Origin: Candidatus Micrarchaeia archaeon
Lineage (GTDB): Archaea > Micrarchaeota > Micrarchaeia > Anstonellales > JAHKLY01
Assembly (NCBI GenBank): GCA_041653315.1
Contig: JBAZFO010000003.1
Coordinates: 1,180 to 65,179 of the forward strand
DNA length: 64,000 nt
Direction: 5' to 3'
How positions within the stretch are numbered: the stretch's first letter is position 1; each line of letters starts with the position of its first letter. The position numbers were made by a program, and so were the translations under genes. Shown in pieces: positions 1-62,459 of the stretch. Below the pieces are notes generated by a model. It had not been told where the DNA came from. It did no database searches and saw nothing but the letters and a program-made list of their open reading frames with translations.

Positions 1-280
1 CTGATATCTCTGTTTTTAAATCTGAAATCTTAATATTAATCCCTACAGAACGATCTTCTGTTTTTCTTTTATCATTTTGATAACCATTACTTTCAACAGA
101 AACTATTTTTATCCCTCTAGAATTATCAATTGACGAAGAGAAACTATTAGGCTCTTTTATGCCCATAAATGAGGCCTCTTGAAAACTAATTAAAACCCCA
201 GTCAATAATATAAATATAAAAATTGATATGTATATTGATTTAAAACAAAAAAACTTATTTACATCTAGTAAATTTTTCAT
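1..280 (-). CDS. Partial CDS running off the left edge. N-terminus is MKNLLDVNKFFCFKSIYISIFIFILLTGVL..., a signal-peptide or TM-like start; secreted or membrane hypothetical
   Basis: Reverse-strand ATG at 278..280 is followed by a hydrophobic N-terminal segment. The frame is open to position 1. It is absent from the ORF track because it is incomplete. Confidence 0.35.
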   Translation of the reverse strand, partial: MKNLLDVNKFFCFKSIYISIFIFILLTGVLISFQEASFMGIKEPNSFSSSIDNSRGIKIVSVESNGYQNDKRKTEDRSVGINIKISDLKTEIS

Positions 281-412
281 ATTATTCCCCCCCACAAACT
301 AATTTTTATACTATTCTTATAATAATATTACAAAATGCTTTTAAATCTAGTGGGTATTTATGTAATTAGATAAATACCAAAATATGTAAAAACACACAAA
401 ATCGGGATTAGT

Positions 413-991
413 ATGCAAATAAAAAATAATGATGACTATAAAACAGCATTAGAATTAGCATCAAATATAATACTCAATGGAGGTATTATTTTATATCCAA
501 CAGATACAGTTTATGGATTAGGATGTAATGGATTAAATTTAAAAGCTGTTGAAAAAATTAATAAAATAAAACAAATAACTGAATTTAAACCTATATCTGC
601 TTTATTTGGGCATATAGAAATAGCAAAACAATACTGTAATATAAACGAAGAACAGGAAAAAATTTTAAAAAAATATCTACCCGGGCCATATACTTTTATT
701 TTACCTTTAAAAAAAGCAATTCCCCTATCTAATAATAACACTTTGGGAATACGAATACCAAATAATAAATTTTGTATAGATTTAGGAAAATTATTAAAAA
801 TTCCTATAGCTTCAACAAGTGCGAATTTAACAGGTGAAAAACCACCAATAAACATATCAGAGGTTACTATAAAAAAGAAAGTGGATCTAATAATTGACCA
901 AGGAGAATGTAATGAAAAAGAATCTTCAACTATAGTAGATCTAATAAATAACAAAATAATAAGACAGGGAAAAGCAGAGTTTAAATTTTAA
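413..991 (+). CDS. L-threonylcarbamoyladenylate synthase, Sua5/YrdC/TsaC family (t6A biosynthesis)
   Basis: 192 aa with the YrdC-domain hallmarks ILYPTDTVYGLGCN and STSANLTGE. Size fits a stand-alone YrdC domain. Confidence 0.85.
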   Translation: MQIKNNDDYKTALELASNIILNGGIILYPTDTVYGLGCNGLNLKAVEKINKIKQITEFKPISALFGHIEIAKQYCNINEEQEKILKKYLPGPYTFILPLKKAIPLSNNNTLGIRIPNNKFCIDLGKLLKIPIASTSANLTGEKPPINISEVTIKKKVDLIIDQGECNEKESSTIVDLINNKIIRQGKAEFKF

Positions 992-1026
992 GAAAGTAAT
1001 AAAAATAATGCTTTTAAAATAAACTT

Positions 1027-1548
1027 ATGAAAAAGGTAATATTAGTAGATAAAAATAATAATGAAATAGGAGAAGAAGAAAAGCAAAAAGCACATTTAGA
1101 AGGAAAACTTCATAGAGCTTTTTCTATTTTGGTTTTTAACAGTAAAAAAGAACTATTAATCCACAAAAGAGAAAGCAGCAAATATCATTCAGGAGGATTA
1201 TGGACAAATACAGTATGCAGTCATCCAAAACCAAAAGAGAAAATAGAAGATGCAGTTCATAGAAGATTAAAAGAAGAAATGGGATTTGATACAGAACTTA
1301 AAGAGATAGGACAATTTATTTATAAAACAAAAATAAAAGACTTAACAGAACACGAATTAGATTATGTATTTTTAGGTTTTTCGGATAAAAAACCAAATCC
1401 AGATCCAAAAGAAATTGAAGATTATATGTATTTATCACTAGAAGATTTAAAAAAAGATATGAAAATTAATCCAAATAAATACACTTTTTGGTTTAAAATA
1501 ATTATAAAAGATTATGAAAAAGAAATAAATACCTTTATAAACTCATAA
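1027..1548 (+). CDS. idi: Isopentenyl-diphosphate delta-isomerase type 1 (Nudix fold)
   Basis: LHRAFSILVFNSKKELLIHKRESSKYHSGGLWTNTVCSHP matches the type 1 IDI signature (HRAFSVF ... WTNTCCSHP) and a Nudix E-rich box. Confidence 0.7.
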   Translation: MKKVILVDKNNNEIGEEEKQKAHLEGKLHRAFSILVFNSKKELLIHKRESSKYHSGGLWTNTVCSHPKPKEKIEDAVHRRLKEEMGFDTELKEIGQFIYKTKIKDLTEHELDYVFLGFSDKKPNPDPKEIEDYMYLSLEDLKKDMKINPNKYTFWFKIIIKDYEKEINTFINS

Positions 1549-1610
1549 ATGAATAATAAAATAAAGAGAAACAAAAATTAGTGAATAAATAATGCTTATT
1601 TTGTTTTAAA

Positions 1611-2837
1611 ATGGTGAAAAATATGACAATGGAATTATTGAGTAAAAAAACAGTCCATTCATTAAAAGAAATGGGTTATGAAAATTTAACAGAAGTGCAA
1701 AAAAAAGTTATTCCTAGAATTATTGAAGGAAAAGAAGTTATTTGCAGAAGTAAAACAGGCACTGGAAAAACAGCTGCTTTTGGTATTGGGCTAATTGAAA
1801 GAATAGTAGAAAAAAAATCAAAAAAAGGATTAGTTATTACTCCAACAAGAGAACTAGCAGTGCAAGTAGCAAAAGAAGTATATAAAATAGGTAAAGGAAA
1901 TAGAATAAATGTAATCACTATTTATGGTGGCGTAAGTATTGAAAATCAAATAAATGATTTAAAAAGAAGACCTGAAATTGTAGTCGCAACACCAGGTAGA
2001 TTATTAGATTTAATTAATAGGCGAGAAATTGAACCAAAAGAATTTGATGTAGTAATTTTAGATGAAGCAGATATAATGCTTGATATGGGATTTATTGATG
2101 ATATTGATAAAGTTCTGAGTAAAATTAAACCAAAACCATTAATTGAATTATTTTCAGCAACAGTAGATAAAGAAATTCTGAATATTGCAGAAAAATATAT
2201 GAAAGATTATGAATTTATAGAAATGTCAGATATGGGAAAACCAATAGAAATCACTGAAAAAATAATAGATGTTACTCAAAAGGAAAAATTTGGTGCATTA
2301 TTAGATATTATATTCGAGGATAAAAATAGAAAAACTTTGATATTTTTAAATACTAAACGCGGAGTTGAAAGAATTGCAGAAAAAATAGAACAAAAAAGAT
2401 TCAGAGTAGGAACTTTACATGGAAATATGTCTCAAAATAAAAGAGAATTTGTTTTAAGAGAATTTAAACAAAATAAAATAGATATTTTAATAGCAACAGA
2501 TGTAGCAGCAAGAGGAATACATATAGATAATGTAGATCTAGTTATTAATTTTGACTTAGCTAAAACTGCTAAGACTCACTTACATAGAATAGGAAGAACT
2601 GGAAGAATGAATCAAAAAGGTTGTGCAATATCTTTTAATACAACAAATGAAATAAGACGTGAATATATTGGATACCTGCCTCCTGTACAAAGCGAAACGT
2701 ATTCATATGAAAGCAGAGGAGAAAATAAAGAAAACAGAAAAAATAGGCCAGTTTATGATAATAAAGATAATAGAAAAAAAAATAATAAAAAAAGAGAGTT
2801 TACAAGACAATACGGCGATCCAAATTATAGAGATTAA
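1611..2837 (+). CDS. DEAD-box ATP-dependent RNA helicase
   Basis: Motif I SKTGTGKTAAF, Ia PTRELA, Ib TPGRLLD, II DEAD (VILDEADIML), III SAT, V ATDVAARGIHI and VI HRIGRTGR. Basic and acidic C-terminal tail. Confidence 0.9.
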   Translation: MVKNMTMELLSKKTVHSLKEMGYENLTEVQKKVIPRIIEGKEVICRSKTGTGKTAAFGIGLIERIVEKKSKKGLVITPTRELAVQVAKEVYKIGKGNRINVITIYGGVSIENQINDLKRRPEIVVATPGRLLDLINRREIEPKEFDVVILDEADIMLDMGFIDDIDKVLSKIKPKPLIELFSATVDKEILNIAEKYMKDYEFIEMSDMGKPIEITEKIIDVTQKEKFGALLDIIFEDKNRKTLIFLNTKRGVERIAEKIEQKRFRVGTLHGNMSQNKREFVLREFKQNKIDILIATDVAARGIHIDNVDLVINFDLAKTAKTHLHRIGRTGRMNQKGCAISFNTTNEIRREYIGYLPPVQSETYSYESRGENKENRKNRPVYDNKDNRKKNNKKREFTRQYGDPNYRD

Positions 2838-4651
2838 AAATTAAAAAAATCATCTAAATGTTTAATTATATAATCTGAAGGGAAGTATTGAAAATCCTTT
2901 GGGAAATATTGCTTATATTTTTCCCAATTAAATCTTTCATCTAATAATACGATAGCACATTTATCTGTTTCGCTTCTTATTCCCCTGCCTGCAGATTGTA
3001 AAACTTTATTTACTGCAGGAATCATATAAGTATATTCATTTCCTTTTCCTTGACCAAATTTAATATCAAAATAAGATACTAAATTCTTTTTTTCTAAAGA
3101 AGGAGGAGCTAATGGAATTCCTACTATAACAATTCCTTGAAGAGAATTATTTTCAAAATCAATACCTTCTGAAAAAGACCCTTTTTGTACACCTAACAAG
3201 GTTAAATTATTCTTTTTATGCATATTTTCTAAAACTATTTTTTTGTCCTCTTTTTTCCATTCTGAAGATTCTAAAATTAACTCTTTAGTTGAATCTATAT
3301 ATTTAGAAACATTCTCCATTAATTTATATGAAGGAAAAAAAACTGCGGTATTATGAGGTATACATTCAATTACTTCTGCAATTGCATTTCCCATTTTTTT
3401 AAATTCTTCTTCATTTCTCTTATGATATACAGTTGATAAAATATTAGAAGATAAAATAAGCCTATTCTCTTTTGGAAAAGGCGAGATATACTCTTTAAGT
3501 TCTCTATTTTCAATACCTAAAATGTCTGCATAAACTTCTGGGGGATACAAAGTTCCACTCATTAATATTGATGCATGAACAGAAGAAAAAATAGGTTGCG
3601 TAATATCTGAAGGATCAAGTGGAAATAAAGAGATTTCATCTTCTTTTATTATTCTTAATACATGTTCATTATCTTCTTTCCAAGAATAGAAAAAATTCAA
3701 CATGCTTGTTAAAGATAAAAACTCAAATTCATTTTCTTTTTTAGAACTTGCATATACTTCTGTTTGTTCAAGTCTACTTATAAAACTATTAAAATCAAAT
3801 TCAGAAACAAATGAGTTTTTAAATAACTCATTTATTTCATCCAACAACTCTTGTTTTTCTATAATTTTTTCTTGTCTACTCCCCAATAAATTAAAAATAT
3901 TCTTTAAAGAATCAAATGCCCTAGATAAAACAGGATCTGGAGCATATTCTTTTAATTCTTTTTTACAATTTGAGATTAAATTTTTAGATAAAGTAAATGT
4001 CATTAATTCTCTAGCTCTTTCTGGAAGATTATGCGCTTCATCAACAATTAAAATTATATCTTCCAAACCAATATTCATTTTAGACAAAACAATATTTTTT
4101 ATCATTGAATCAAAAATATAATTATAATCACAAACTAATACATCTGCATCTGCAATTAATTTTGATTCTGCTGAATGTGGACATGCAGAAAATTGTTTAC
4201 AAATTTGTTTTGCTTCTTCTACATGATAAATATCTTCCTTTAATGCCATTAAAGCAAAACCTTTTACATATGCATAAGGACATTTTTTAGATTTTATTTG
4301 ATGATAACAAAAAGAATCAAAATCATTTCTTTTCATATCTTTTGATTCTTGCAATAAACACATCTGTTGTTTATTTATTATATCTGCAACAACTAATTCA
4401 ACATTGTGTTTTTCTTTTATTAATTTTAAAGTATTTATTGCTATGGTATGTTGAGAATGTCTTGAAGTTGTAAAAATAACTTTTTTATTAAATTCTTTTG
4501 CATATTCTAAAACTGCACTTAAAACAGCTGCTGTTTTTCCTATACCAGTTGGCGCATATGCCAATAAATTAGTTCCTTTATAACACGCTTCTTTACAGTC
4601 TTCATAAAATTGTTTTTGAACTGGTCTTATCTCATCAAAAGGAAAAAACAT
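2834..4651 (-). CDS. XPD/Rad3-family (DinG-like) 5'-3' DNA helicase with an Fe-S cluster
   Basis: Walker A AYAPTGIGKT, DEAH box VDEAHNL, four Cys in the FeS region (CYHQ..C..C..C) and C-terminal motif GRGIRSETDKCAIVLLDERF. Confidence 0.8.
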   Translation of the reverse strand: MFFPFDEIRPVQKQFYEDCKEACYKGTNLLAYAPTGIGKTAAVLSAVLEYAKEFNKKVIFTTSRHSQHTIAINTLKLIKEKHNVELVVADIINKQQMCLLQESKDMKRNDFDSFCYHQIKSKKCPYAYVKGFALMALKEDIYHVEEAKQICKQFSACPHSAESKLIADADVLVCDYNYIFDSMIKNIVLSKMNIGLEDIILIVDEAHNLPERARELMTFTLSKNLISNCKKELKEYAPDPVLSRAFDSLKNIFNLLGSRQEKIIEKQELLDEINELFKNSFVSEFDFNSFISRLEQTEVYASSKKENEFEFLSLTSMLNFFYSWKEDNEHVLRIIKEDEISLFPLDPSDITQPIFSSVHASILMSGTLYPPEVYADILGIENRELKEYISPFPKENRLILSSNILSTVYHKRNEEEFKKMGNAIAEVIECIPHNTAVFFPSYKLMENVSKYIDSTKELILESSEWKKEDKKIVLENMHKKNNLTLLGVQKGSFSEGIDFENNSLQGIVIVGIPLAPPSLEKKNLVSYFDIKFGQGKGNEYTYMIPAVNKVLQSAGRGIRSETDKCAIVLLDERFNWEKYKQYFPKDFQYFPSDYIIKHLDDFFNF

Positions 4652-4663
4652 ATCTACACCATT

Positions 4664-5557
4664 TTATAATATTTCTAATAATTCATCTATTCTACTTAGA
4701 TTAATAATCGGTTTTTGAAATCTTTCGTAATCTTCTATTAATCTAGGGCATGCTGTATTTATATATGCATCAAAAATATTAAAATTCTGTAAAGCAATTG
4801 AATTAATTTCATTACATATTAGAATTACTGCTTGTTTTCCTTTTTCTTCTAATTTCTTTTTAGCTTCTTCTGCGCCTTGTAAATTAAATTGCCCTATTTT
4901 TGTTGAAACTAAAATACCAAAGGTTTTAGCTTCACTTGATTTTAATAAAGCACCTTGTAATTTTTTATTATATACTTGTATTTCATCATTTACTTTTTTG
5001 AACTCTCCATTTATTGGATTTATAATAAAAACAGGAATTTCATAATTTAAAGTTAAATAATGAAATTTTCCTCCTCCAATATATAAAACACACTCTATTT
5101 TATCTAATATTTCACCTACTGCTCCAGTATCACATCCTAAAATTTGTCCTTTATAAAAACATTTTGGTCCTTTTCCCATAAAAACTTCCTTATGATTTTT
5201 TTTTAATAATTGTTTTATTTCATCTAATTGGTGAATATGCTGAACAGTTGTTATTAAACCTATTTTTTTGAAATTTTTTATTCTACCTAAATGTTTTTTT
5301 ATAATTTCTAAATCTATATCTTGGTGATACTCTTTATATTCAACTTGTATCTTTGTTTTTATACCTACAAAAGGCGCATGGCCATAATGAATTATTTTAT
5401 CTGCTTTTACTTTTTCAGCTTCTTCAATAGCTAAATCACAAGCACCATAACAGCTTGCACTGGATATAAATACTTCATTACCTTGATTTTCTAATATTTT
5501 CTGCTCCTCAAGCGCTTTTGATTTAAGCCCTTCTGGAAACTGTAATAATATGCGCAT
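4664..5557 (-). CDS. dph2: Diphthamide biosynthesis protein Dph2 (2-(3-amino-3-carboxypropyl)histidine synthase)
   Basis: N-terminus MRILLQFPEGL...SCYGACD and conserved Cys pattern typical of archaeal Dph2. Confidence 0.8.
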   Translation of the reverse strand: MRILLQFPEGLKSKALEEQKILENQGNEVFISSASCYGACDLAIEEAEKVKADKIIHYGHAPFVGIKTKIQVEYKEYHQDIDLEIIKKHLGRIKNFKKIGLITTVQHIHQLDEIKQLLKKNHKEVFMGKGPKCFYKGQILGCDTGAVGEILDKIECVLYIGGGKFHYLTLNYEIPVFIINPINGEFKKVNDEIQVYNKKLQGALLKSSEAKTFGILVSTKIGQFNLQGAEEAKKKLEEKGKQAVILICNEINSIALQNFNIFDAYINTACPRLIEDYERFQKPIINLSRIDELLEIL

Positions 5558-5578
5558 GTTAAGAATTTAGAGGGTTTT

Positions 5579-5611
5579 ATTTAAAAAGGCTTTTAGAGAG
5601 TACATTTCCGG
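5579..5611. repeat. 33-bp element ATTTAAAAAGGCTTTTAGAGAGTACATTTCCGG, copy 1 (downstream of the R gene)
   Basis: Perfect direct-repeat copy at 7956..7988. Core AGAGAGTACATTTCCGG also at 8820..8836 and AGAGAGTACATTT at 14262..14274. Confidence 0.8.
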
Positions 5612-6547
5612 TTAAATATCTTTAAATAATCTTTTTAATCCTACGGTGTTTACAAAAAAATTATTTTTATTATTTAAATGGGATTTAATATCCTCTTTTT
5701 GTCTTGAAATTTTATTATTAAATGAATCTTCAATAAAATAATTAAAATAAATTCCATCTATAAAAGAAACATAATGAACACATTTATTTTTTTCAGAATT
5801 TTTAATAAATGAGATTAATTCACTTATTTGTTTATCTTGAGCACCACCACCTTCTTTTATGTGTTTTGCTTCAATTATAAAGAAGTGACTCTTTATTTTA
5901 AGAACCATGTCCGGTTCTTTAGATTGTTTTCCTTTTCCAAATTTATAACATATTTTATATTTTTTACAAAATTCATTAAATAATTTTTTATCTCCTTTAT
6001 CTGGTAAAAAATAACTAATTTTATTTTCTTCAAATTTTTTAATATTTCGTGAATATTCAACTTTCATTTGTTTATTTAAAATTTCTTTAATCTTTTTTAT
6101 ACCTAAAACACTATTTTTACGTGAAGAACCAGAATCATAAAGTGCTTGAATAGTAATATTCGAATAACCTAATGAATCATAAATTTTCCTTCTTTTTTGA
6201 CAATATTCATTAAGAATTTTTTCTAAAATTTCCCTCTTATTAGAAAGTTTTAAAAAAATAGAGTAAGAAATATCTAAAACCTTCCAAAAAGCAACAAATT
6301 CTGTATATTGTACTTTATTCATTGAAAGAATTATTTTATATATCTCATCAGATATTTTAATGGCGGCTTTTTTGTCTTTTTCACACACCACACAATAACT
6401 TATTATTAATTCTCTTAATCTTTCAACTTTAATTAAAAACTCTCTATCCTCAACAATTAATTTATCTTGACAATAAAATTCATCAATAACTGGTTCTGTA
6501 TTTTTTAAAGATAAATTCCAATAAAATAAATTGTTTTTTAAAACCAT
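5612..6547 (-). CDS. Candidate type II restriction endonuclease (PD-(D/E)XK fold), partner of the adjacent methyltransferase
   Basis: PD-x12-EAK motif (EPDMVLKIKSHFFIIEAKH). Overlaps the MTase gene end by 10 nt on the same strand. No other recognisable domain. Confidence 0.45.
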   Translation of the reverse strand: MVLKNNLFYWNLSLKNTEPVIDEFYCQDKLIVEDREFLIKVERLRELIISYCVVCEKDKKAAIKISDEIYKIILSMNKVQYTEFVAFWKVLDISYSIFLKLSNKREILEKILNEYCQKRRKIYDSLGYSNITIQALYDSGSSRKNSVLGIKKIKEILNKQMKVEYSRNIKKFEENKISYFLPDKGDKKLFNEFCKKYKICYKFGKGKQSKEPDMVLKIKSHFFIIEAKHIKEGGGAQDKQISELISFIKNSEKNKCVHYVSFIDGIYFNYFIEDSFNNKISRQKEDIKSHLNNKNNFFVNTVGLKRLFKDI

Positions 6548-7935
6548 TGTTCAAGACCTCTTTTTATTTGTGGCTCTTCGATTGTTGCATATTCTTCTAT
6601 TTGTGTAGAATCTTCTATATATGTAGAAAGATCAGATAATGAAAAAGTTTGCATAAGGTTTTTAACTTGAGAAAGACCTAAATATTTTCTTATATAAGTT
6701 CCATTAGAATATTTATAGGTTGTCATAAATTCACTATCTGTGTTTTCTCTTAATTTATTAAGTAAATTATTAAATTCTTTGATTAGTTTTTTAGAATTGA
6801 CGTCTGTTAAAGTTGGAGTTAAAAACATTTGAATAGGACAAGTTCTATAAGTAGCACCACTTATAAAAATACCATCAACTCCAAATACCTCTTGAATATT
6901 ATAAATTCCTGCTTTTCCATCTATTGAACCTGTATCAACCGTTCTAATAAAAAAAGGATTAGATAAAATCTTTTTATATAAATAATCATTTACAAAAAAC
7001 TCCTTTTTTAAATAACCTCTAGATGTGTATTTCTTTGAATCTAACAAAACAACTTTATTTTTTCCTAAATTTTCATTTATCTCATTTTCAGTAAGATAAA
7101 ATGATATTGAAAAAGAATTGGTTTTTTTTATTTTTTTAGTATATTCATAAAATTCGAATCCTGCTCTAAAATGATTTTTATTTGAAAGTTTATAATGTCT
7201 TTTTTTAGTCTCACAATTAATTTTTATTGCATCAAATTCTAATTTGGTATTAATCTTATCAGTTTTTTCAAAAAAACAAATTATTACATTTGTTCCTGTA
7301 AAATCAAATATTTTTTTTTCAAAAATTACTGCTTCATTTATATTATATCTACTAAGAAAATCATCCCTTATTTTATTTGAAACAACAGCACCAAATAAAA
7401 AATTAGACGGGATAATATAAATCATATTTTTTAAATTATTTCTAAGATCATTAATTAATGCAATTTGATATAAATCTTGATATCCTTTATTTACACCTGT
7501 GAAAAGTTTTTGCTGTTCTTTATTTTTTTCATGTTTAGAAATATAACCTAAATATAAATAAGGCGGATTAGTAATATGAAACACTGGTTTTTTGGAATTA
7601 AGCAAAAATTTTGGATAATTTTTAAGTGTATCTAATTGTAGAATGTTTTTTTCAGCAATTTCTTTAGGTATCCCGTAAGAAACTGCATTTTGGATTGATT
7701 TATCCACCATTTCCGATTGAATATCAAAAAGATATATATTTGCTTTAAAAAATTCAATTCTTTTATCTTTTTCAATTTGTTCAAGAATTGGAAGAATTAA
7801 ATTACCTTCACCTGCAAAAAGATCAACCCAAATATAATCATTTAATTTATTTTTAATTTTAGGAAAAATAAATTTTTTGAAAATATTTACTGAAGTTAAA
7901 TGTACTCCAAGATCCCTTCTCTTTCCTTTATCCAT
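6538..7935 (-). CDS. N6-adenine-specific DNA methyltransferase (gamma-type, type II R-M)
   Basis: AdoMet motif I VDLFAGEGNL and catalytic motif IV ITNPPY. Confidence 0.75.
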   Translation of the reverse strand: MDKGKRRDLGVHLTSVNIFKKFIFPKIKNKLNDYIWVDLFAGEGNLILPILEQIEKDKRIEFFKANIYLFDIQSEMVDKSIQNAVSYGIPKEIAEKNILQLDTLKNYPKFLLNSKKPVFHITNPPYLYLGYISKHEKNKEQQKLFTGVNKGYQDLYQIALINDLRNNLKNMIYIIPSNFLFGAVVSNKIRDDFLSRYNINEAVIFEKKIFDFTGTNVIICFFEKTDKINTKLEFDAIKINCETKKRHYKLSNKNHFRAGFEFYEYTKKIKKTNSFSISFYLTENEINENLGKNKVVLLDSKKYTSRGYLKKEFFVNDYLYKKILSNPFFIRTVDTGSIDGKAGIYNIQEVFGVDGIFISGATYRTCPIQMFLTPTLTDVNSKKLIKEFNNLLNKLRENTDSEFMTTYKYSNGTYIRKYLGLSQVKNLMQTFSLSDLSTYIEDSTQIEEYATIEEPQIKRGLEQWF

Positions 7936-7955
7936 ATATTTATTAAAAAGTTTAA

Positions 7956-7988
7956 ATTTAAAAAGGCTTTTAGAGAGTACATTTCCGG
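7956..7988. repeat. 33-bp element, copy 2 (upstream of the M gene)
   Basis: Identical to 5579..5611. Confidence 0.8.
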
Positions 7989-7993
7989 GTGTT

Positions 7994-8471
7994 TATACTT
8001 GTTTATATTTTGTATTAAAAAAATCTTTAGGATTTAATAATTTATTTTTTAATTTTTGAAAATATTTTTTATTCCAAGTTATAAAATAATCTGCTTCACT
8101 TTTAATAAAAGCATAATATTGCACCGAATCTTCATAATTAAAATTCATATCTTTAAGTGCTAATAATATCTCTTCAGTATTTAAGGAAATAACTTTCCAA
8201 TTTGTATTTTTAAAAATAGTAAGACAAAATTCTCTGGATTTTTTATCTGCTTCTTTTTCAGATAATTCTTGTCCATGTTTATATACCGGTCTTTGTAATT
8301 TAAAAGATAAATAATTAGATAAAGAAAAAATAGTTCCTTCATGTATAATTATTTCAATTTATTTCTTTTTATTAAGTCTACTAATTTAACTGAATCACTT
8401 AATGTTTTTTCATTAAATAAGGTATAATTAACATAATCAAAAAAAATATTTTTATCTATATATAAACTCAT
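7994..8471 (-). pseudogene. VapC-like PIN-domain toxin gene interrupted by a frameshift
   Basis: ATG at 8469..8471 opens a 41-aa frame MSLYIDKNIFFDYVN... (PIN N-terminal DxN motif) that stops. A second frame shifted by one nucleotide continues as ...EILLALKDMNFNYEDSVQYYAFIKSEADYFITWNKKYF, a PIN C-terminal D..T.N motif, up to a stop at 7994..7996. The shift lies in an A-rich run. Confidence 0.5.
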
Positions 8472-8725
8472 ATAAAATCTGCCTCAGAAACTATTTTATT
8501 TTCTATTAATTCTTTATGTGTTTTTGCTCTTTTTTTATCAATATACTCAACATAATCATCTTCCCATTTATCTTCTTTGTTTTCAATTAAAATATTTTGA
8601 TTATTCTTATAATATTCCATTGCCATTACCCGTATTGCTTCTGCTTTTGAATTAACAATTCCTTTTTTTAACATTTTATTAACAACTTTTTCAACCATAC
8701 CTTTAAACGTAGCATTTATCAACAT
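8468..8725 (-). CDS. Ribbon-helix-helix (CopG/Arc-like) antitoxin-type DNA-binding protein
   Basis: 85 aa. N-terminal beta strand MLINATFKG followed by helices (SKAEAIRVMAMEYY). Its stop overlaps the PIN start in an ATGA arrangement. Confidence 0.4.
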   Translation of the reverse strand: MLINATFKGMVEKVVNKMLKKGIVNSKAEAIRVMAMEYYKNNQNILIENKEDKWEDDYVEYIDKKRAKTHKELIENKIVSEADFI

Positions 8726-9200
8726 TTTTACTACCCCCTATGTAGTTTTTATGTAGTAAATATTTATAAATGTACTGTTTTAATTCTATTTTGTAAATAA
8801 AGTTTATAAATAACATTAAAGAGAGTACATTTCCGGACTAATTATTGTAAATCAATTATCTAATGTTTAAAACTTTATTTTAAATTTATAAAATGCAGTT
8901 GATTTATGAAAAAACAAATATAAATATAAAATCAAATAAGATTATTAAAACTATTTCTATTTAACTCTAATAAAAAGTTAAAAAAATAAATATGTTTTTT
9001 ATTTTAAAATAAGTTATTAATTATTTTATTAGAGCTACTATAATATTTACTATTAATAAGAATATAGTAATAATATTAATTACTCTAGTTTCTTTTCTCA
9101 TATCAAATAGTTCTAAAAAAATTCTTTGACCATCTATTGGATTCATTTAATCACCTTTTTTATATTAATGTTTCTCCTTTATTTTAATATGAAATTTTAT

Positions 9201-9515
9201 TTATCTATTTTTAATACGTTTTAGTAGATCTTCTTTCCTTTTGTTAAACTCTGTTATATCTTCATCTTTTATATAAATTTCTAAATTCTCTTGATTTTTT
9301 TCAGCGGCAATGCCAAAAATTCTTTTTTTAGATGACAACATTATTTTAAATAAATATATAAACTGTTTATAAACTTCTGGAGTTTGAATTAAATCTAATT
9401 TACATGTTTTTTCTATTTGTTTACCCTTCTCTTTTGTATCTAAAATTTTAAATGTAATTTTTCCTAAATCTCCACTTAAAAATGAAATTGATTTTATTAT
9501 TATATCTATCACCAA
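9201..9515 (-). CDS. Hypothetical protein (104 aa)
   Basis: ORF only. Downstream partner of 9586..10245 on the same strand. Confidence 0.3.
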   Translation of the reverse strand: MVIDIIIKSISFLSGDLGKITFKILDTKEKGKQIEKTCKLDLIQTPEVYKQFIYLFKIMLSSKKRIFGIAAEKNQENLEIYIKDEDITEFNKRKEDLLKRIKNR

Positions 9516-9585
9516 TACTATTATATATAGAAATATTTAAATGAATTTGTTGATTTTTTATGATGTAATGTTTAATTTTGTGCTT

Positions 9586-10245
9586 TTATTGTAAATCTTG
9601 CCCAAAAATGTTTGGTTTTCCCCTTTCTTCTGGTTCTATTACAGTTTCAAATGTTCCTTTATTATATGTCATAATTCTAACTCTATCTGTATATTTATTC
9701 CCATCTATAATTAAAGAGAGATTTATATTTTTTGATGAAAAAAATGAAAGTTTATCTATTGGAATAATTATAATATACTCAAAATAATTATACTTATATT
9801 TATCTCTATACTGAATGGCTTGTTTAATCTTGTTTTTTAATGCAACCATTGTTGCAGTAGTCTGTATCTCCACCCAATAATCCTTATCTTCATCTGTTAT
9901 AAAAAATAAATCTGGTCTTGGACCTTTTGATCTAAGTCTTGGGCGTTTTTCTATAAATAATTTATTTATATTATGTGTTTTATTGAAATATTTAATAAAC
10001 TCATTTTTAATCTCCCAATGTAAAAAATTTGGGATTGGTGTGTCAAAGGCACAAATATAATTCTCTTCTTGTCCTCTTTTTAATCTATTTAAAATATCTT
10101 GAATTTTTAAGATAGTTGTTTCATGTTTTTGATCTTCTCCTTCTACCTCAAAATCAAAGGTTTTCTTAGAATTATTTTTTAATAAATCATTTAACTCCCA
10201 AAGTGAAGTTATTATCTTCTTTATGCTTTCATCAATTTCTTGCAT
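9586..10245 (-). CDS. Hypothetical protein (219 aa) with a possible PD...E nuclease-like motif
   Basis: RPDLFFITDEDKDYWVEIQT segment. No firm domain call. Confidence 0.3.
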   Translation of the reverse strand: MQEIDESIKKIITSLWELNDLLKNNSKKTFDFEVEGEDQKHETTILKIQDILNRLKRGQEENYICAFDTPIPNFLHWEIKNEFIKYFNKTHNINKLFIEKRPRLRSKGPRPDLFFITDEDKDYWVEIQTTATMVALKNKIKQAIQYRDKYKYNYFEYIIIIPIDKLSFFSSKNINLSLIIDGNKYTDRVRIMTYNKGTFETVIEPEERGKPNIFGQDLQ

Positions 10246-10279
10246 TTAATCCCTTTTGATTATATTCAATACTATTATT

Positions 10280-13200
10280 TTAGGCTTCATCTAGCCAGTC
10301 GTCTTCATCGCGCATTAAATTCATACGCGCATTTTGTAATAAAAGCGCTTTTTCAGCGCTTGCTACAATTCTTCTTGTGCGCTCAATTGCATCTGGATTA
10401 ACAGACATTGATGTAAATCCATATTCAACTAAGCGCCTTGCAAAATCTGGATACACAGAAGGCGCTTGACCACATACTGAACATGTAATTCCTTTTTTAT
10501 TACAAGTTTTACCTATATATTTCAAGGATTTTAACACAGCACTGTTTCTTTCATCAAAATCATGCGCTAATTTAGCATTATCTCTGTCAACACCCAAAGT
10601 TAATTGAGTTAAATCATTTGTACCTACAGATACTCCATCTATTCCTACATCTATAAATTCATTTAATAAAATAACATTGGAAGGAACTTCTACCATCATC
10701 CAAAGTTTAAAATCTTTAGTTCTGTACAACCCTACTTCATGAAGTATTGTTTTAACTTGTTTAAGCTCTCCAACTCTCCTTACAAAAGGAATCATTAACC
10801 AAAGATTTTTAAGATTAAATTCATTACGAACTTTTTTTATTGCTTCTAATTCCATTTTGAAAACATTTGGATCTGAAATATATCTTGAAGCTCCTCTAAA
10901 ACCCATCATTGGATTTTCTTCTTCATGCTCATATTTTTCTCCGCCTTTTAATGATTTATATTCATTTGTTTTGAAATCAGTTGCTCTATAAACAACAGGC
11001 CTTGGATAAAAAGCAGAAGCAAATTTTCTTAATTCATTTGATAATTTATTTATAAATTCTTCTTTTCTATTTTCATCAACAAAAACTCTTGGGTGTTCTC
11101 CAATTTCAGCAATAATAAACTCTGCTCTTAATAATCCGATACCATCTACATCCATATCTGCTATTTCTTCAACTCTTGAAGAACTAGCTAAATTAACATA
11201 AATTTTAGTTCCAGTTATAGGAGAATATTTTTCTGTTTGAGAAATTTGTTTAGTTTCTTTATTTTTCATTTTAATTATTCCTTCATATACCACTCCCCTA
11301 ACTGCATCAACAGTTACATTCATCCCAGTAGATAATTTTTTAGTAGCATCGTTAGTACCAACAATACATGGTATGCCTAATTCTCTAGAAACTATGGCCG
11401 CATGTGAAGTTGAACCCCCATAATCAGTTACAATTGCACCTGCTTTTTTCATTGCTGGAACAAAATCTGGAGAAGTCATAGAGGTAACTAAAATTTCGCC
11501 TTTTTGTATTTTATCAATTTCATTTTTTGTAGGGATAATTCTTACTCTGCCAGAAACAACTCCTGGTGATGCACCTAATCCTTTTAATAAAACTTCTCCT
11601 TGTTCTTCATCAGAAGAATAATATGAAGGAGAATCTTCTTCATAAGATAAAGAATATCTTTCATTAATGTCTTTTTTTTCTGCTAATGAATCAAGTAAAT
11701 TATTAACTTCATCTTTTTCTTCTGTATTCTCTTGATCTAAAGTAGTAATAGGTCTAGATTGTACTATATACATTTTTCCATTTTCATAAGCCCATTCTAT
11801 ATCTTGAGGAACACCATAATGTTTTTCTATTTTTCTGCATATTTTTGCGAGTTCTACTATCTTATCATCAGATAATTTTTGTAGATTTTGAGAACTTAAT
11901 GAAATATCAATATGTTCATTTTTACCTTCAGATAAAATCAATTTCCAAGTCTGTGTAGAAATAAATTTATTTATTATTTGTAAATCATCTTTTTTAACTG
12001 AATATCTATCTGGAGTCAACGCACCAGACACTACAACTTCTCCTAATCCATATGCACCTTCAATTTCTATTCTATTTTTATCTTGGGTAATAGGATCAAC
12101 AGTAAAAGCTACACCTGCTGTTTCTGATTGAACCATTTTTTGGACTACAGCTGAAAGTCCGACTTTTAAATGATCAAATCCATTTTCAGTTCTATAAAAA
12201 ATAGCCCTGGATTCAAATAAAGAAGCCCAACATTCTTTAACAGATTGAACTACGTTTTCAGGTCCTTGAATATTAAGAAATGTTGACTGCTGCCCAGCAA
12301 ATGAAAATGTGTTATGGGTAATTATTCCCCCAGTTCCAGCAACAAAATTTTCAATTCCTGGAACAGTAAAATCATAAACCCACCCTTCATAATCTAATGG
12401 CTTTACTTCTTTTATTTTTTCCCAATTCACATCACCATCAAAAATAGATGAAAGATCTTCTGAATTATACTCTTTCATTAATTCTTTGAATCTTTTTTGT
12501 GTATATTCTCCATTTAATACTCCTTTATTCCAAGGAGTTGATTCTCTTTTAAATTTCCCAAATTCATCATAATAAACATATGCTTCTTCCTTTTCTTTAA
12601 TTACATCTTTATCATAAAAAGACTTTTTACAATTTGGACAATAATATCTTGTTTTTGTTTTATATTTGCTTGATTTATTTATTTTTTCTTTACAAATAGG
12701 ACATTTATTTATTTCAATGATGTCTTTTGATAATTTTGCATCTACTTTGTTTTTTATAATATCTGATAATTTTTTTGAAATTTTTATATTCGCTATATAT
12801 CTTGGAGAATTATTTTTTATTTTTATTAATTTATTTAATCTTTCTTGCTTCTTTGGATGTTCAAATCCTATCTCTTTTTTAAATAAATCAACATCTCCCC
12901 CCCAAATACTAAGCACCCTATATTTTTTCTTTTTATTAAAAGTAATACCAAAACCAAAAAGTTCTAATAATTTTGCTAAACCACTTATAAGTAAGTATGA
13001 AGAAGAGGTACAACTTATTGTATCTTTACTTACATATCCATCTCCATCAAAATAACCTTTTAAAAATTCAGATATAAATTGCTTTTCTAAACTAAAAATA
13101 AAATCTGGTATCCGTTTTATTTCACAGGATTTGCCTTTACCTTTCATATCTAAAGGTTTACCAGTTAATTCATGCAATAATTTAACGAGTGTTTTACAAT

Positions 13201-14251
13201 ATATCCTTAACGAATACTTATTTATTTTTTGATTATTATATAAACCAAGCGAATCAACAAATTTTATTACTCTATTCATGATTTCTTTTGTTGATGAAGT
13301 TATGATAACATTATTATCTTCATATGTTGAACCTTCAGCAACATAAACACCTAAAAAATACATAAAATCCTTTGTTAATGGAATTTTTGAAGGTAAAGAA
13401 TTTTGGATATTCCAATTATTAGAATTATTTTTAATCATAAGGTATCCATTTTCTTCAACAACATTTTTTCCTTTTATATAATCTGTTACCTCTAAATATT
13501 CCATTTTTTTATTTACAAATGGAAGTGTACCAACAGTAGGAACCATTTCTCCTCCTTTTAAATTATCAATTGTTTCTGTTTTCCATTCTAAAGTATCTTC
13601 ATCTAAAACTATTAAAGAATGATTTTTAGATACAGTAATCTCTTTTCCTGAAGCAGTTTTTATTTTATATACTCTTTCATTTGCGGGGTGTCTATATATT
13701 GAACTAGCGCTAGTCCATATTAATTTATTGTTTTTCATAGAAGGAACTTCTAAATTCACATTTTGTCCATCCCCAATTAATTTATATAATTCCCCCATTG
13801 TACAAAATTTGGTATTATTATTTATCTTTACTAAAACATGATCTTCTTCTGATATACTTGGCAAATCTTCTGCTGTGGCTGAAGATCTTACTGCAACATA
13901 GGTTTGATCACCATATTTTTGACATAATTTATTATACGCATCCATTATTTCATTTTTTAAATAATCTGGAATTTTACCTGCTAAAATTGCATTTTTAATA
14001 AATAAAGAAGCTTCATTTAAATTTTTAATATTATGAACATCTAAATCACTGGAATATTCTTTTATTAAAGAAGTAATATTATTTAATCTAATAAAATCAT
14101 AATAAGCTCCACTTGAAACACAAAAACCATCTGGAATTGGAAAATCTGAATTAATCATTTCACCTAGATTAGCCCCTTTTCCCCCAACTTCTGCTAAATT
14201 ATTTTTACTCAATTCTTTAAACCAATAGATATTTTTCATTATAAACACCAA
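10280..14251 (-). CDS. ppsA: Phosphoenolpyruvate synthase (PEP/pyruvate-binding, PEP-utilising and PEP-synthase domains), interrupted by an intein
   Basis: N-terminus GGKGANLGEM. Extein junction VAVRSSATAEDLP / TFSFAGQQSTFLN matches the conserved AEDLP..SFAGQQ block. The conserved PEP-utilising domain and C-terminal Cys block are present. Called start is TTG; the in-frame ATG at Met5 is an alternative. Confidence 0.9.
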   Translation of the reverse strand: MVFIMKNIYWFKELSKNNLAEVGGKGANLGEMINSDFPIPDGFCVSSGAYYDFIRLNNITSLIKEYSSDLDVHNIKNLNEASLFIKNAILAGKIPDYLKNEIMDAYNKLCQKYGDQTYVAVRSSATAEDLPSISEEDHVLVKINNNTKFCTMGELYKLIGDGQNVNLEVPSMKNNKLIWTSASSIYRHPANERVYKIKTASGKEITVSKNHSLIVLDEDTLEWKTETIDNLKGGEMVPTVGTLPFVNKKMEYLEVTDYIKGKNVVEENGYLMIKNNSNNWNIQNSLPSKIPLTKDFMYFLGVYVAEGSTYEDNNVIITSSTKEIMNRVIKFVDSLGLYNNQKINKYSLRIYCKTLVKLLHELTGKPLDMKGKGKSCEIKRIPDFIFSLEKQFISEFLKGYFDGDGYVSKDTISCTSSSYLLISGLAKLLELFGFGITFNKKKKYRVLSIWGGDVDLFKKEIGFEHPKKQERLNKLIKIKNNSPRYIANIKISKKLSDIIKNKVDAKLSKDIIEINKCPICKEKINKSSKYKTKTRYYCPNCKKSFYDKDVIKEKEEAYVYYDEFGKFKRESTPWNKGVLNGEYTQKRFKELMKEYNSEDLSSIFDGDVNWEKIKEVKPLDYEGWVYDFTVPGIENFVAGTGGIITHNTFSFAGQQSTFLNIQGPENVVQSVKECWASLFESRAIFYRTENGFDHLKVGLSAVVQKMVQSETAGVAFTVDPITQDKNRIEIEGAYGLGEVVVSGALTPDRYSVKKDDLQIINKFISTQTWKLILSEGKNEHIDISLSSQNLQKLSDDKIVELAKICRKIEKHYGVPQDIEWAYENGKMYIVQSRPITTLDQENTEEKDEVNNLLDSLAEKKDINERYSLSYEEDSPSYYSSDEEQGEVLLKGLGASPGVVSGRVRIIPTKNEIDKIQKGEILVTSMTSPDFVPAMKKAGAIVTDYGGSTSHAAIVSRELGIPCIVGTNDATKKLSTGMNVTVDAVRGVVYEGIIKMKNKETKQISQTEKYSPITGTKIYVNLASSSRVEEIADMDVDGIGLLRAEFIIAEIGEHPRVFVDENRKEEFINKLSNELRKFASAFYPRPVVYRATDFKTNEYKSLKGGEKYEHEEENPMMGFRGASRYISDPNVFKMELEAIKKVRNEFNLKNLWLMIPFVRRVGELKQVKTILHEVGLYRTKDFKLWMMVEVPSNVILLNEFIDVGIDGVSVGTNDLTQLTLGVDRDNAKLAHDFDERNSAVLKSLKYIGKTCNKKGITCSVCGQAPSVYPDFARRLVEYGFTSMSVNPDAIERTRRIVASAEKALLLQNARMNLMRDEDDWLDEA
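12311..13858 (-). mobile_element. Intein (516 aa) with a LAGLIDADG homing-endonuclease domain inside ppsA
   Basis: Begins SISEEDHVLV (Ser1) straight after DLP and ends ...GGIITHN followed by Thr+1. LAGLIDADG blocks LGVYVAEGS and LKGYFDGDGYVS. Removing it restores an 807-aa PpsA. Confidence 0.8.
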
Positions 14252-14364
14252 ACATTATAACAGAGAGTACATTTAAAATATTAATGCTTAATAAATACTT
14301 ATGAAATTGATAGTTAGGATAACCTTTAAATAAGTAATCCTATCTTAATATTTTATAATTTTTA

Positions 14365-14502
14365 GGGCTCGTAACTCAGCTTGGTAGAGTGGCTGGCTTT
14401 TAACCAGTAAGCCAAGGGTTCAATAACCTTTTTCTTTCTTGCAAGAAAGTAAAAGCTTAACCAAAAAGAAAGAAACTGGAAGAATAAATCCCTTCGGGCC
14501 CG
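14365..14502 (+). tRNA. tRNA-Lys (anticodon UUU) with a roughly 61-nt intron inside the T-loop (between TTCAA and AT, position 58/59)
   Basis: Acceptor GGGCTCG/CGGGCCC, D arm ACTC...GAGT, anticodon stem-loop GCTGG CTTTTAA CCAGT. T stem AAGGG...CCCTT is split by an intron that carries the hairpin TTTCTTTCTTGCAAGAAAG. Poly-T follows. Confidence 0.7.
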
Positions 14503-14550
14503 TTTTTTACTTATAGGAATTGTTATAAAACTCTTTGGAGAGACTAATAT

Positions 14551-15150
14551 ATGGAAATAGAATTCAAAAATAAAGAAATACATCTTAAAAGAGATACCTC
14601 CGAATTAGATAAATTTGTATTTGAAACAGTAAAAATAGTAAAAAAACATACAAAATATGTAATAATTAGTGGATATATTGCAATTCTTTTTGGTCGAGCA
14701 AGAGGAACAGAGGATATAGATATGTTTATTGAAAGAATTGATTTCAAAACTTTTGAAAAGATGTTTGATGATTTACTTGAAAATAATATGTGGTGTATAA
14801 ACGGAAGTAATAAAAGAAAAATGTTTGATTTATTAGAAGATAATCTAGCAATAAGATTTGCAAAAAAAGATACAGTTATCCCGAATTTTGAAATAAAATT
14901 TATAAAAGATATATATTCAAAATACTCTTTGGATAATAAAATAAAAGTAATACTTAATAAAGAAGAATTATATACTTCTTTACTAGAAATGCAAATACCT
15001 TATAAATTAAAATTAGGTTCTGAAAAAGATTTAGAAGATGCAACACATTTATATGTTTTATTTGAAAAATATTTAGATATGCAAAAAATGAAGGAAATAG
15101 CAAAAATGCTAAAAGTGGATTTGGGTGTATTAAATGAGAGATTACAATGA
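14551..15150 (+). CDS. Nucleotidyltransferase-fold protein (Pol beta-like minimal NTase, toxin-type)
   Basis: ISGYIAILFGRARGTEDIDMFIE matches the G[SG]-x9-13-[DE]h[DE]h NTase signature. Confidence 0.5.
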   Translation: MEIEFKNKEIHLKRDTSELDKFVFETVKIVKKHTKYVIISGYIAILFGRARGTEDIDMFIERIDFKTFEKMFDDLLENNMWCINGSNKRKMFDLLEDNLAIRFAKKDTVIPNFEIKFIKDIYSKYSLDNKIKVILNKEELYTSLLEMQIPYKLKLGSEKDLEDATHLYVLFEKYLDMQKMKEIAKMLKVDLGVLNERLQ

Positions 15151-15330
15151 AAAAAAACAAAGAATAGAATTTGTCAAAACTTGGGCAGAATATATTAAAA
15201 ACACCCCAAACTCTATTTGGTCAAAACAATATGTGATGTTTATTAATAGCATAATGAAATCTACTCTTCAAGATAAAGAAATTTATTTTAAAACACATAA
15301 AATAAATACTCAAAATTAATTGGTGTAATT

Positions 15331-15996
15331 ATGAATAAAAAAATAATAAAAATATTCCCAGGAGTATTTGAAATTGAAAGAAGAATTGCTACAAAGAATT
15401 TAATTAAAGGTAATCCTGTTTATGGAGAAATTATAAAAAAAATAGATAATGATGAATATAGGTTTTGGGACCCTCATAGAAGTAAATTATGTGCTGCAAT
15501 TAAAAGAGGAATAAAAGATATTTATATTAAAGAAGGAGATAAAGTATTATATTTAGGGGCAGCAACTGGAACAACATCTTCTCATGTTGCAGATATTATA
15601 GGCCCTAAAGGAGTAGCTTACTGTGTTGAATTTGCACCTATTTCATTTAGGAAACTTATTCATGTATGCGAAAATAGAACAAATATGATCCCAATAATGG
15701 GAGATGCAAGGAAACCAGATATGTATACTGAAGTTGGAGAAGTAGATATTGTTTATGAGGATGTAGCACAACCAGATTTAGCAGAAATACTATTAACAAA
15801 TTGCAGATATTTCTTAAAAAAAGGAGGATATGCAATGCTTGCTGTTAAATCACAAAGTATTGATGTTACTAAAGATCCAAAACAAACATATGAAGAAACT
15901 ATAAAAAAATTAGAAAAAGAACTAAAAATTGTTGAAACAATTATCTTAGATCCATATGAAAAAGACCACCTGTTTATTGTAGCTCAAAAAATTTAA
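15331..15996 (+). CDS. flpA: Fibrillarin-like rRNA/tRNA 2'-O-methyltransferase
   Basis: FWDPHRSKLCAAI, AdoMet motif YLGAATGTTSSHVADI; 221 aa. Confidence 0.9.
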   Translation: MNKKIIKIFPGVFEIERRIATKNLIKGNPVYGEIIKKIDNDEYRFWDPHRSKLCAAIKRGIKDIYIKEGDKVLYLGAATGTTSSHVADIIGPKGVAYCVEFAPISFRKLIHVCENRTNMIPIMGDARKPDMYTEVGEVDIVYEDVAQPDLAEILLTNCRYFLKKGGYAMLAVKSQSIDVTKDPKQTYEETIKKLEKELKIVETIILDPYEKDHLFIVAQKI

Positions 15997-16745: not shown

Positions 16746-16974
16746 ATTAAAATTTAATATAAAATTATCTCAGAATAAATTTATAAAACATAGCTTTATA
16801 AACGAAAAACACGTATAATATTATAGGCAATGAAGTCACCGTCCCAGTATGAGATTAACGATGATTACCGGAGTAGCTACTGAGCCCATTATTATATTTT
16901 TTAATATTTTATACTCCATTACTTTTTTTACCAAAGTTATACTTTTATATAACTTTCGTAATATAATATCTTCT

Positions 16975-17619: not shown

Positions 17620-17627
17620 GTGAAATT

Positions 17628-18137: not shown

Positions 18138-18149
18138 GAAAAAAGAAGT

Positions 18150-18686: not shown

Positions 18687-18797
18687 TATACCTCTCCTCC
18701 CCTTTATTTTATATATTATTTTATGTGTTTTTTCTTTATAAATGTTTCTATTAATGTATGACTATGTTAATACTACTATATTATTTTAACTGCCTTT

Positions 18798-18884
18798 TTA
18801 AATCTTTAACTGTTTTAGCGCTATTTATTATATCCTTATCCTGCGCCCAGCCTTTTCGCGCTGTTCCTATTCCTAATTCAATAT
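18798..18884. repeat. About 85-bp direct repeat, copy 1 (intergenic, upstream of gdhA). It is a displaced copy of the polX 3' end
   Basis: Identical to 20250..20335. Its reverse complement encodes IELGIGTARKGWAQDKDIINSAKTVKDL, the PolX C-terminus. Confidence 0.85.
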
Positions 18885-19015
18885 AACTACTAAACTTACA
18901 AATAATACATACATTGCTTCTAAAAACATAGGTGTATAAATCTTTTGTGTGTAATAATATCCTTCTTTATTAATTATCCCCTAAAAAATTCTATTAAAAT
19001 CTGAAAGGTGATTAA

Positions 19016-62325: not shown

Positions 62326-62459
62326 CTCTCTAATTAATATTAGTTTTGTGTTAAAATATATATTTAGTTGTATTTAAAAAGGTTTTTATATGGGGATTTA
62401 TAAAAAAACGCTGGAGCAAATAAAATTTGCTTGGTGCATTTTTTCTACAGAAAAAATAG

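Follow-up and report, generated by a model that had tools for sequence, protein, structure and literature searches.

Restriction–modification (RM) units that insert into bacterial chromosomes with long duplication of the target have been described by Kobayashi's group in Helicobacter pylori and other bacteria (Furuta et al. 2010, PMC2853133). In the cases that we draw on from that paper, a complete pair of restriction (R) and modification (M) genes shorter than 20 kb and without a mobility gene lies between direct repeats of more than 30 bp, and in a related genome the unoccupied site holds a single copy of the repeated sequence. Here we analyse a locus that resembles these cases on both counts. 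It lies in a 64,000-nt stretch of contig JBAZFO010000003.1 of a Candidatus Micrarchaeia archaeon (hereafter the window; the contig has 26% GC), in which a predicted type II M–R pair is bracketed by a 33-bp perfect direct repeat. Compared with the cases drawn from PMC2853133, the host is a DPANN archaeon and not a bacterium, the duplicated target appears to be a whole promoter module so that cargo and resident gene would both keep a promoter, and at least two further, unrelated insertions at the site lie between copies of the same 33-nt unit, whereas the duplications are described there as 'long and variable'.

A second precedent is the propagation of putative mobile promoters (Matus-Garcia, Nijveen and van Passel 2012, PMC3488235). 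As in that work, near-identical promoters precede non-homologous genes within a genome and across distant taxa, but the units described there are 50–100 nt long with at least 80% identity, whereas those reported here span 17–33 nt, are of the archaeal type with a B recognition element (BRE) and a TATA box, and are tied to insertion boundaries. The element also differs from the ends of IS200/IS605 transposons in that it has no subterminal hairpin and that neither TnpA nor TnpB is encoded in the island of the window; TnpB follows the element at one other locus only (L021; we designate comparison loci by L numbers).

Integron cassette arrays, which involve attI and attC sites and the integrase IntI, have also been reported in Archaea. 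As in integrons, accessory cassettes are stacked here at one fixed site, with a short conserved boundary sequence and the newest cassette closest. Unlike in integrons, there is no integrase-family match within ~10 kb and no attC-like imperfect palindrome, and while integron cassettes are usually promoterless, the element lies at the 5′ end of the cassette and would itself be the promoter. Upstream activating sites that adjoin the BRE are known in archaea, for example those of Ptr2 in Methanocaldococcus and of TFB-RF1 in Pyrococcus. The element is likewise a conserved block right upstream of BRE and TATA, about −54 to −38 from the start, but its sequence is unrelated to theirs and non-palindromic, and the genes downstream of it are mostly mobile or defence genes. 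Finally, like the C-box operators of type II RM systems, it is a conserved sequence upstream of an RM operon, and at L004 a small ribbon–helix–helix (RHH)-like gene precedes M; unlike a C-box, it is found with an M–R pair that lacks a C gene, it also stands before dph2, PIN and TnpB genes, and it lies upstream of the core promoter instead of overlapping it. With no C gene present and the same box before these other genes, an operator for a C protein is ruled out.

The 33-mer, ATTTAAAAAGGCTTTTAGAGAGTACATTTCCGG on the plus strand, occurs at exactly two places in the window, 5579–5611 (copy A) and 7956–7988 (copy B), as an earlier note on this DNA had reported. No third copy was found in the window at up to three mismatches, and the 33-mer occurred 0 times in 100 shuffles. 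The copies are identical at 33 of 33 positions, and their similarity ends directly outside the 33 nt at both edges. All genes flanking the repeats are on the minus strand. Read on this strand, the 33-mer is composed of a 17-nt box (CCGGAAATGTACTCTCT), a BRE-like AAAAGCC and a TATA box (TTTTTAAAT), which in copy A occupy 5611–5595, 5594–5588 and 5587–5579, respectively. Copy A had been described as lying immediately 3′ of R, and it does abut the R stop codon (5612–5614); the description is incomplete, as the end of copy A is also 21 nt from the ATG (5557) of dph2 (4664–5557, minus strand), a conserved housekeeping gene for diphthamide synthase that marks the host as an archaeon. Copy B, also on the minus strand, lies 4 nt past the stop codon of a PIN toxin pseudogene, and its end is 20 nt from the ATG of M at 7935, a start codon that is supported by alignments with homologues.

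A TATA-to-ATG spacing of ~21–22 nt without a Shine–Dalgarno sequence is also seen at other genes of the window (25837–26433, 36099–36683, 44701–45282 and 62897–63772). Since the geometry is the same, we regard the 33-mer as a leaderless-type BRE/TATA core promoter with an extra 17-nt box upstream of the BRE. Both copies have a purine-rich BRE and an AT-rich TATA box 20–21 nt before the ATG, and this arrangement is conserved in the orthologues; the TTTAAA-like box noticed earlier on the gene strand is thus a TATA box at leaderless distance. We read the direct repeat as a duplicated archaeal promoter module that is native to dph2 in this Micrarchaeia lineage.

The earlier note had also offered a recurring regulatory or terminator element. 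The regulatory part holds, in that what looks like one promoter module recurs before unrelated DPANN genes (see below), but the terminator part is unsupported. No hairpin was found at the element, all three copies in the window folding no better than shuffled sequence (z-scores 0.2–0.9), and copies A and B are free of local inverted repeats. The lack of secondary structure rules out a terminator hairpin, an attC site and an IS end. A run of five T residues inside the TATA box, situated 27 nt after the R stop codon in the downstream copy, is present in the window, L111 and L113 and is replaced by TTTATAAAT in L039 and L109; since there is no stem-loop and the run is not kept in the latter two, a terminator role is at most secondary.

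The 13-nt core AGAGAGTACATTT is found at four sites in the window (5595, 7972, 8820 and 14262), compared with 0.2 expected, and the recurrences reported earlier at 8820–8836 (17 nt) and 14262–14274 (13 nt) are exact as sequence matches. The first is the full 17-nt core in common with both 33-mers and belongs to a third copy of the element (copy C, 8803–8836, minus strand), which has the exact box at 8836–8820, a 9-nt unrelated spacer and a TTTATAAA box at 8810–8803. Copy C lies 94 nt upstream of an RHH–PIN operon; closer to the ATG are another TATA-like box and part of the motif in inverted orientation (GTACATTT on the gene strand). The second match, AAATGTACTCTCT on the minus strand 22 nt upstream of the ppsA ATG, had been counted as the same element, and here we disagree: because it has no CCGG prefix, lies downstream of a TATA-like box and has drifted by 1–4 mismatches out of 13 at the orthologous sites of relatives, we treat it as coincidental, probably a chance resemblance inside a conserved ppsA promoter.

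The three copies of the element in the 64 kb are thus all in the island between ppsA and dph2, with none at the other ~60 genes, and a generic promoter motif is ruled out on these grounds. The same holds for degenerate copies: scores from a position weight matrix (PWM) scan of 237 kb are bimodal, true copies reaching at least 25 bits and no site falling at 14–25 bits. The generic promoter that the earlier note had set against a cassette is therefore not what we find; the element occurs rarely and in a sharply defined form, unlike a degenerate generic motif.

We compared the locus with five related lineages (74–87% Dph2 identity), which exact look-ups of proteins and scans for patterns had recovered. 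The order in the window, read on the gene strand, is ppsA (with an intein), orf219, orf104, copy C, RHH, PIN, copy B, M, R, copy A, dph2 and an XPD-type helicase gene. ppsA and dph2 are neighbours in all five relatives, and the gap between them varies from 71 nt to 4.67 kb. It is 71 nt in L113 and consists of a 58-aa open reading frame (ORF) in L039/L028, each with one element copy. In L111/L112 (~1.1 kb; RHH, PIN and a 47-aa ORF) and in L109/L110/L067 (~2 kb; a 60-aa ORF, NYN, DUF5678 and small ORFs), two element copies bracket the island, and the window has three copies in 4.67 kb. Element orthologues are found in front of dph2 in L028/L039, L067/L109, L111 and L113. The M–R pair is absent from the gap of all five relatives. 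The gap is a variable accessory-gene island.

The most informative relative is L111. Its RHH–PIN cassette is orthologous to that of the window (77% nucleotide identity) and is followed by orf47, a single element (32/33) and dph2; the left-hand copy of L111 (L111_L) is the positional counterpart of copy C. The sequence to the left of copy B aligns to that on the left of the single L111 element, and the sequence to the right of copy A to that on its right, as is characteristic of an insertion with the target duplicated on either side. L111 thus appears close to an empty site for a 2,344-bp M–R insert, with a single element where the window has element–M–R–element, and the earlier suggestion of a cassette at a repeated site is borne out by this comparison and by the absence of M–R from the relatives. 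The single-copy state is also seen in L113 and L039. R and M lie inside the insert, the repeat is longer than 30 bp (33/33), its single copy has matching flanks in L111, and no mobility gene lies within ~10 kb, as in the bacterial cases of long target duplication. We withdrew one further argument, namely that the TATA variant TTTTTAAAT is specific to the window and proves a duplication within its lineage; L111 and L113 carry the same variant.

The inserted segment (5612–7955, minus strand) measures 2,344 bp, well under 20 kb, and consists of a 20-nt leader, M and R, with no other gene inside; the repeat period is 2,377 bp. M (6538–7935, minus strand) is predicted to be a 465-aa N6-adenine DNA methyltransferase. 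It matches PF02384 (N6_Mtase, E=1.7e-7), and its NPPY motif (residues 123–126) is part of an ITNPPY stretch (residues 121–126) that is conserved among homologues. An exact-sequence look-up of M returned no record. Its homologues number 1,163, several of them named N-6 DNA methylase at source. R (5612–6547, minus strand), which overlaps M by 10 nt, is predicted to be a 311-aa PD-(D/E)XK endonuclease and a divergent member of the Tsp45I family; Tsp45I itself recognizes GTSAC. R itself stays below the Pfam threshold and has no direct family match, but 15 of 16 aligned members of its family (54–61% identical) match PF06300 (Tsp45I; best E=2.4e-6), and P212-D213...E226-A227-K228 (PD...EAK) is invariant across the R family.

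Homologues of M and R are found by the hundreds, at 53–70% identity, in archaea and bacteria (with source names such as Thermoplasma, Hippea, Thermotoga and Methanococci). The M homologues are partnered with Tsp45I-family endonuclease genes, the collinear M–R order with a 10-nt overlap recurs at L114, and the closest M homologues adjoin DDE transposases. All of this marks the pair as what we take to be a typical horizontally mobile Tsp45I-like type II module. The element is absent at the eight loci of the closest M homologues (L101–L108) and at the collinear M–R module L114/L115, which was found via an R homologue, and the idea that it travels with this M family is thereby ruled out. Among the genes within ~10 kb on either side of the pair, there is no Pfam match to a transposase, integrase or prophage protein, orf219 and orf104 being without family assignment.

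We therefore consider an RM insertion with a 33-bp target duplication, the target being the dph2 promoter module, to be the probable origin of the locus. A 2.34-kb Tsp45I-like M–R cassette would have entered the ppsA–dph2 island right at the dph2 promoter and left one 33-mer on each side. The upstream copy (B) would drive M–R and the downstream copy (A) would keep dph2 expressed; with a copy on each side, the insertion would cost the host nothing and the cargo would be transcribed at once. The T5 run in the downstream copy may help to end the M–R transcript. What the data show is the repeat, the genes, the presence/absence polymorphism with the single-copy, empty-site-like state in relatives and the recurrence of the element at the heads of cassettes; we infer that the copies are active promoters, that transcripts start leaderless and that the duplication arose with the insertion. 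It could have been generated by a staggered or long target duplication, with which the complete identity over 33 bp and the missing mobility genes agree, or by recombination of an element on the incoming DNA with the chromosomal one, which would better explain the same-ended unit at three unrelated insertions and the presence of the box on cassettes in unrelated genomes.

Several observations weigh against this proposal. The empty-site comparator L111 is another species-level lineage (84% Dph2 identity), and an additional 47-aa ORF separates its PIN gene from the element, so that it is not the exact pre-insertion state. Junction B (PIN–33-mer–M) is seen only in the window's own assembly. The 33-nt unit brackets three different insertions with the same ends, which hints at a more site-specific process than the 'long and variable' target duplications. 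Our case for promoter function and leaderless starts is one of geometry and conservation, and a target-site duplication is indistinguishable from Campbell-type recombination between an incoming and a chromosomal element or from a later gene conversion.

Copies of the element outside the island bear on how it should be understood. Scanning 185,579 genomes for the exact 17-mer, we obtained 27 single matches, compared with ~70 predicted by uniform composition, and the count alone is therefore meaningless. Promoter architecture is confined to three DPANN matches among the 27 (L004, L021 and L028); non-DPANN matches were rejected as elements, L008, for example, falling inside a GC-rich coding sequence. 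At L004, the 17-mer heads an RHH-like gene, a C5-methylase gene and a putative R gene, with a gene that reads as vsr-like convergent just downstream. At L021, a contig of 48% GC labelled Iainarchaeum, it heads a TnpB gene, and the module is identical to that of the window at 29 of 33 positions. At L028, it heads the dph2 orthologue. A metagenome scan that required only the 13-mer and a TATA-like box gave 38 matches, six of which carry the CCGG prefix although it was not demanded, and five more carry CTGG, TCGG or TTGG; the remaining matches have no prefix and look like chance. True-type copies head PIN toxin genes (L040 and L062), genes for small proteins and an operon at L060 that encodes a 462-aa product with a motif read as DUF262-like.

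The consensus over 16 copies is YYGGAAAT(G/C)T(A/G)(C/T)TCT(C/T)T. In the copies inspected, the spacer between box and TATA is 6–9 nt, and the distance from box to ATG is either 36–38 nt, which is leaderless geometry, or 49–62 nt, three of the latter having a GGTGAT Shine–Dalgarno sequence. Because the scans needed exact 13- or 17-mers, conservation across phyla is overstated; copies found by synteny carry 1–2 mismatches. In viral contigs, 33 matches to a 15-mer correspond to one conserved phage coding segment or to chance, without any element of the true form, a plasmid search gave no element and a phage search gave only chance-level matches (E about 0.4), so that a viral or plasmid origin has no support from these searches. 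We found no description of the 17-nt element or of DPANN promoter elements in the searchable literature. As a separate observation, two unrelated metagenome contigs (L052 at 5880–5912, identical to L054, and L065) carry half of the motif as an inverted repeat, AGAGAGTAC, 7–8 nt, GTACTCTCT, the left half CCGGAAAT being missing.

Three other explanations have to be weighed against an insertion with target duplication. The M–R unit might be located elsewhere or be circular, with a chromosome that reads PIN–element–dph2, and the window would then be an assembly artefact or reflect a population mixture. It is true that assemblies made with k=31 place the unit and the dph2 side on different contigs, each broken off within the repeat (L001 and L116), and, as noted above, that only the window's own contig contains junction B. 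However, an assembler with k=31 must break at a 33-bp repeat, and the breaks carry no information; the 2,404-nt contig L116 of an independent k=31 assembly is exactly the M–R unit and stops after 30 nt of the repeat on either side, which is what a genuine 33-bp repeat should produce. Moreover, a Joint Genome Institute (JGI) assembly from another sample (L002) spans junction A from R through the 33-mer to dph2, the contig of the metagenome-assembled genome (MAG) runs across both junctions and has no ambiguity symbols in the part that was read, and M–R would still need a 33-mer on both sides somewhere. We judge this explanation highly improbable. A pure regulon has somewhat more to offer, yet it is still very unlikely. 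The box would bind a conserved DPANN transcription factor and act as an activator site just upstream of the BRE, as with Ptr2 or TFB-RF1; selection would have recruited the target genes, and the 33-bp identity, whether incidental or produced by gene conversion, would have nothing to do with the arrival of M–R. Consistent with a factor site, the box lies 6–9 nt upstream of a TATA-like box (7 nt each at L004, L021, L028 and the second L067 copy, which were found without requiring a TATA) and is always oriented towards an ORF; copy C keeps the core at 17 of 17 positions while having a spacer and a TATA that bear no relation to those in copies A and B; and the two copies of L111 share a G-to-C change at position 9 with that of L113, which could reflect co-evolution with the factor. 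On the other hand, the downstream genes are functionally incoherent (dph2, RM, toxin–antitoxin and TnpB), the 33/33 identity extends to the non-core BRE spacer and has abrupt edges, a sign of duplication and not of convergence, indels in three lineages lie between copies, and there are no graded weaker sites in 237 kb. The element could be a factor site; the regulon fails only as an explanation of the repeat.

The third alternative is possible but rather unlikely. Here, box and TATA form a portable promoter that travels with cassettes (toxin–antitoxin, RM and TnpB) and doubles as an att-like recombination site for circular cassettes, much as in an integron. Each integration at dph2 would regenerate the element on both sides, the newest cassette would be nearest dph2 and it would arrive ready for transcription. 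Copies that extend from CCGG to TATA bracket three insertions, M–R in the window, RHH–PIN in the window and L111, and NYN/DUF5678 in L109/L067, and the most recent insert, with perfect repeats and intact genes, is indeed nearest dph2, the older one having a decayed PIN gene. The exact 17-mer heads RHH–C5-methylase–R at L004, TnpB at L021, PIN at L040/L062 and small genes, with spacers and TATA boxes that are otherwise unrelated. The CCGG prefix in 6 of 38 metagenome matches, the bimodal PWM scores without degenerate copies and the size of L116, which is exactly that of a circle of M–R plus one element in a k=31 graph, point in the same direction. Against it, we found no recombinase gene nearby and observed no circular junction, and the element has neither the inverted repeats nor the hairpin of attC or IS200/605 ends. 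Promoter function by itself accounts for the fixed spacing to the TATA and the orientation towards the ORF, some genes of the island are on the opposite strand (NYN and DUF5678 in L109), and the exact 13- and 17-mer searches inflate the apparent conservation. An insertion with target duplication at the dph2 promoter thus remains our preferred reading.

The genomes of DPANN archaea are tiny and encode few regulators, genetic systems are lacking, and little is known of the ways in which these archaea take up and express foreign defence genes. The locus provides a testable picture: a hotspot between two housekeeping genes with insertions bounded by copies of one promoter module. The 17-nt element could be used to probe DPANN metagenomes for accessory-gene islands and as bait for a binding factor, and it is a candidate portable promoter for future DPANN genetics. 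If the recurrent duplication with the same ends reflects a site-specific process, the bacterial mobility of RM units by long target duplication would extend to archaea, with a functional twist. If instead the portable promoter is also a recombination target, Micrarchaeia and allied DPANN would possess an integrase-distal, promoter-based analogue of the integron.

The RHH antitoxin-like gene (8468–8725, minus strand) encodes 85 aa with a weak match to RHH_1 and is 53% identical to an 84-aa protein of L111. The PIN toxin pseudogene (7993–8471, minus strand), whose ATG overlaps the RHH stop codon (ATGA), has a weak match to PIN_3 and a frameshift near 8350. This frameshift is confirmed by the orthologue in L111, which is intact, 157 aa long and 67% identical, and the pair in the window is a decaying toxin–antitoxin pair. 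The region 8768–8832 at copy C forms a 30-nt imperfect palindrome (73% complementary) in which the inverted partial motif AAATGTAC / GTACATTT flanks the first TATA-like box; the second TATA-like box is ~35 nt before the RHH ATG. The palindrome could be the antitoxin's own operator.

Further towards ppsA, orf104 (9201–9515, minus strand) and orf219 (9586–10245, minus strand) occupy a region (9201–10245) that has no counterpart in relatives; orf219 has no family match, and a PD...E-x-Q stretch in it may be nuclease-like. Small ORFs are found just upstream of the dph2 element in L109 (9781–9927, equivalent to L067 1856–2002 and L110 4376–4522) and in L039 (4285–4461). The 48-aa ORF of L067/L109 resembles the C-terminal half of the RHH protein of the window (...YIDKK..TH.EL....V.S..DFI), and the 58-aa ORF of L039 and a 47-aa ORF of L067 have ...VYLASESALK..WDNPK..EVWSKY in common. 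These small ORFs look like cassette remnants and point to repeated gain and partial deletion at the site. In L109, a run of N follows directly after ppsA (~7930–8030) in the public MAG scaffold, and the ppsA 3′ end is duplicated across the gap; the island's edge is evidently a place where this assembly is unstable.

ppsA itself (10280–14239, minus strand), the conserved left border of the island, encodes a 1,319-aa phosphoenolpyruvate synthase that contains an intein at ~12309–13865 with a LAGLIDADG homing endonuclease (Intein_splicing, LAGLIDADG_3 and Hom_end). The orthologues in L039, L109, L111 and L113 are 801–826 aa long and without intein, a presence/absence polymorphism beside the island. 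At some distance, an AbiEii/AbiEi type IV toxin–antitoxin pair (16849–18137, plus strand) is situated between a ZIP transporter gene and the region of the glutamate dehydrogenase (GDH) gene; in L109, such a pair directly adjoins the GDH gene. An identical direct repeat of ~85 nt (~18800–18886 and 20251–20337) lies on both sides of the GDH gene (19016–20233), its right copy being the 3′ end of a convergent 568-aa gene (20230–21936). When L039 is compared with positions 1–20000 of the window, the repeat region matches only the end of a 567-aa gene. It may represent a further rearrangement of the long-duplication type within this genome.

Finally, a tRNA-like gene (14363–14500, plus strand) begins at ~14363 with GGGCTCGTAACTCAGC and has the anticodon loop CTTTTAA, which would make it Lys-UUU; a ~65–70-nt insert around the T-arm is followed by ATCCCTTCGGGCCC. 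ARAGORN detected no tRNA across the whole window, and Rfam gave only partial tRNA matches at 14372–14431 and 40194–40252 (minus strand), both ending at model position 63. The insert region 14443–14507 is 78% complementary to 62451–62515. The partial matches may represent tRNAs with non-canonical introns, or split tRNAs.

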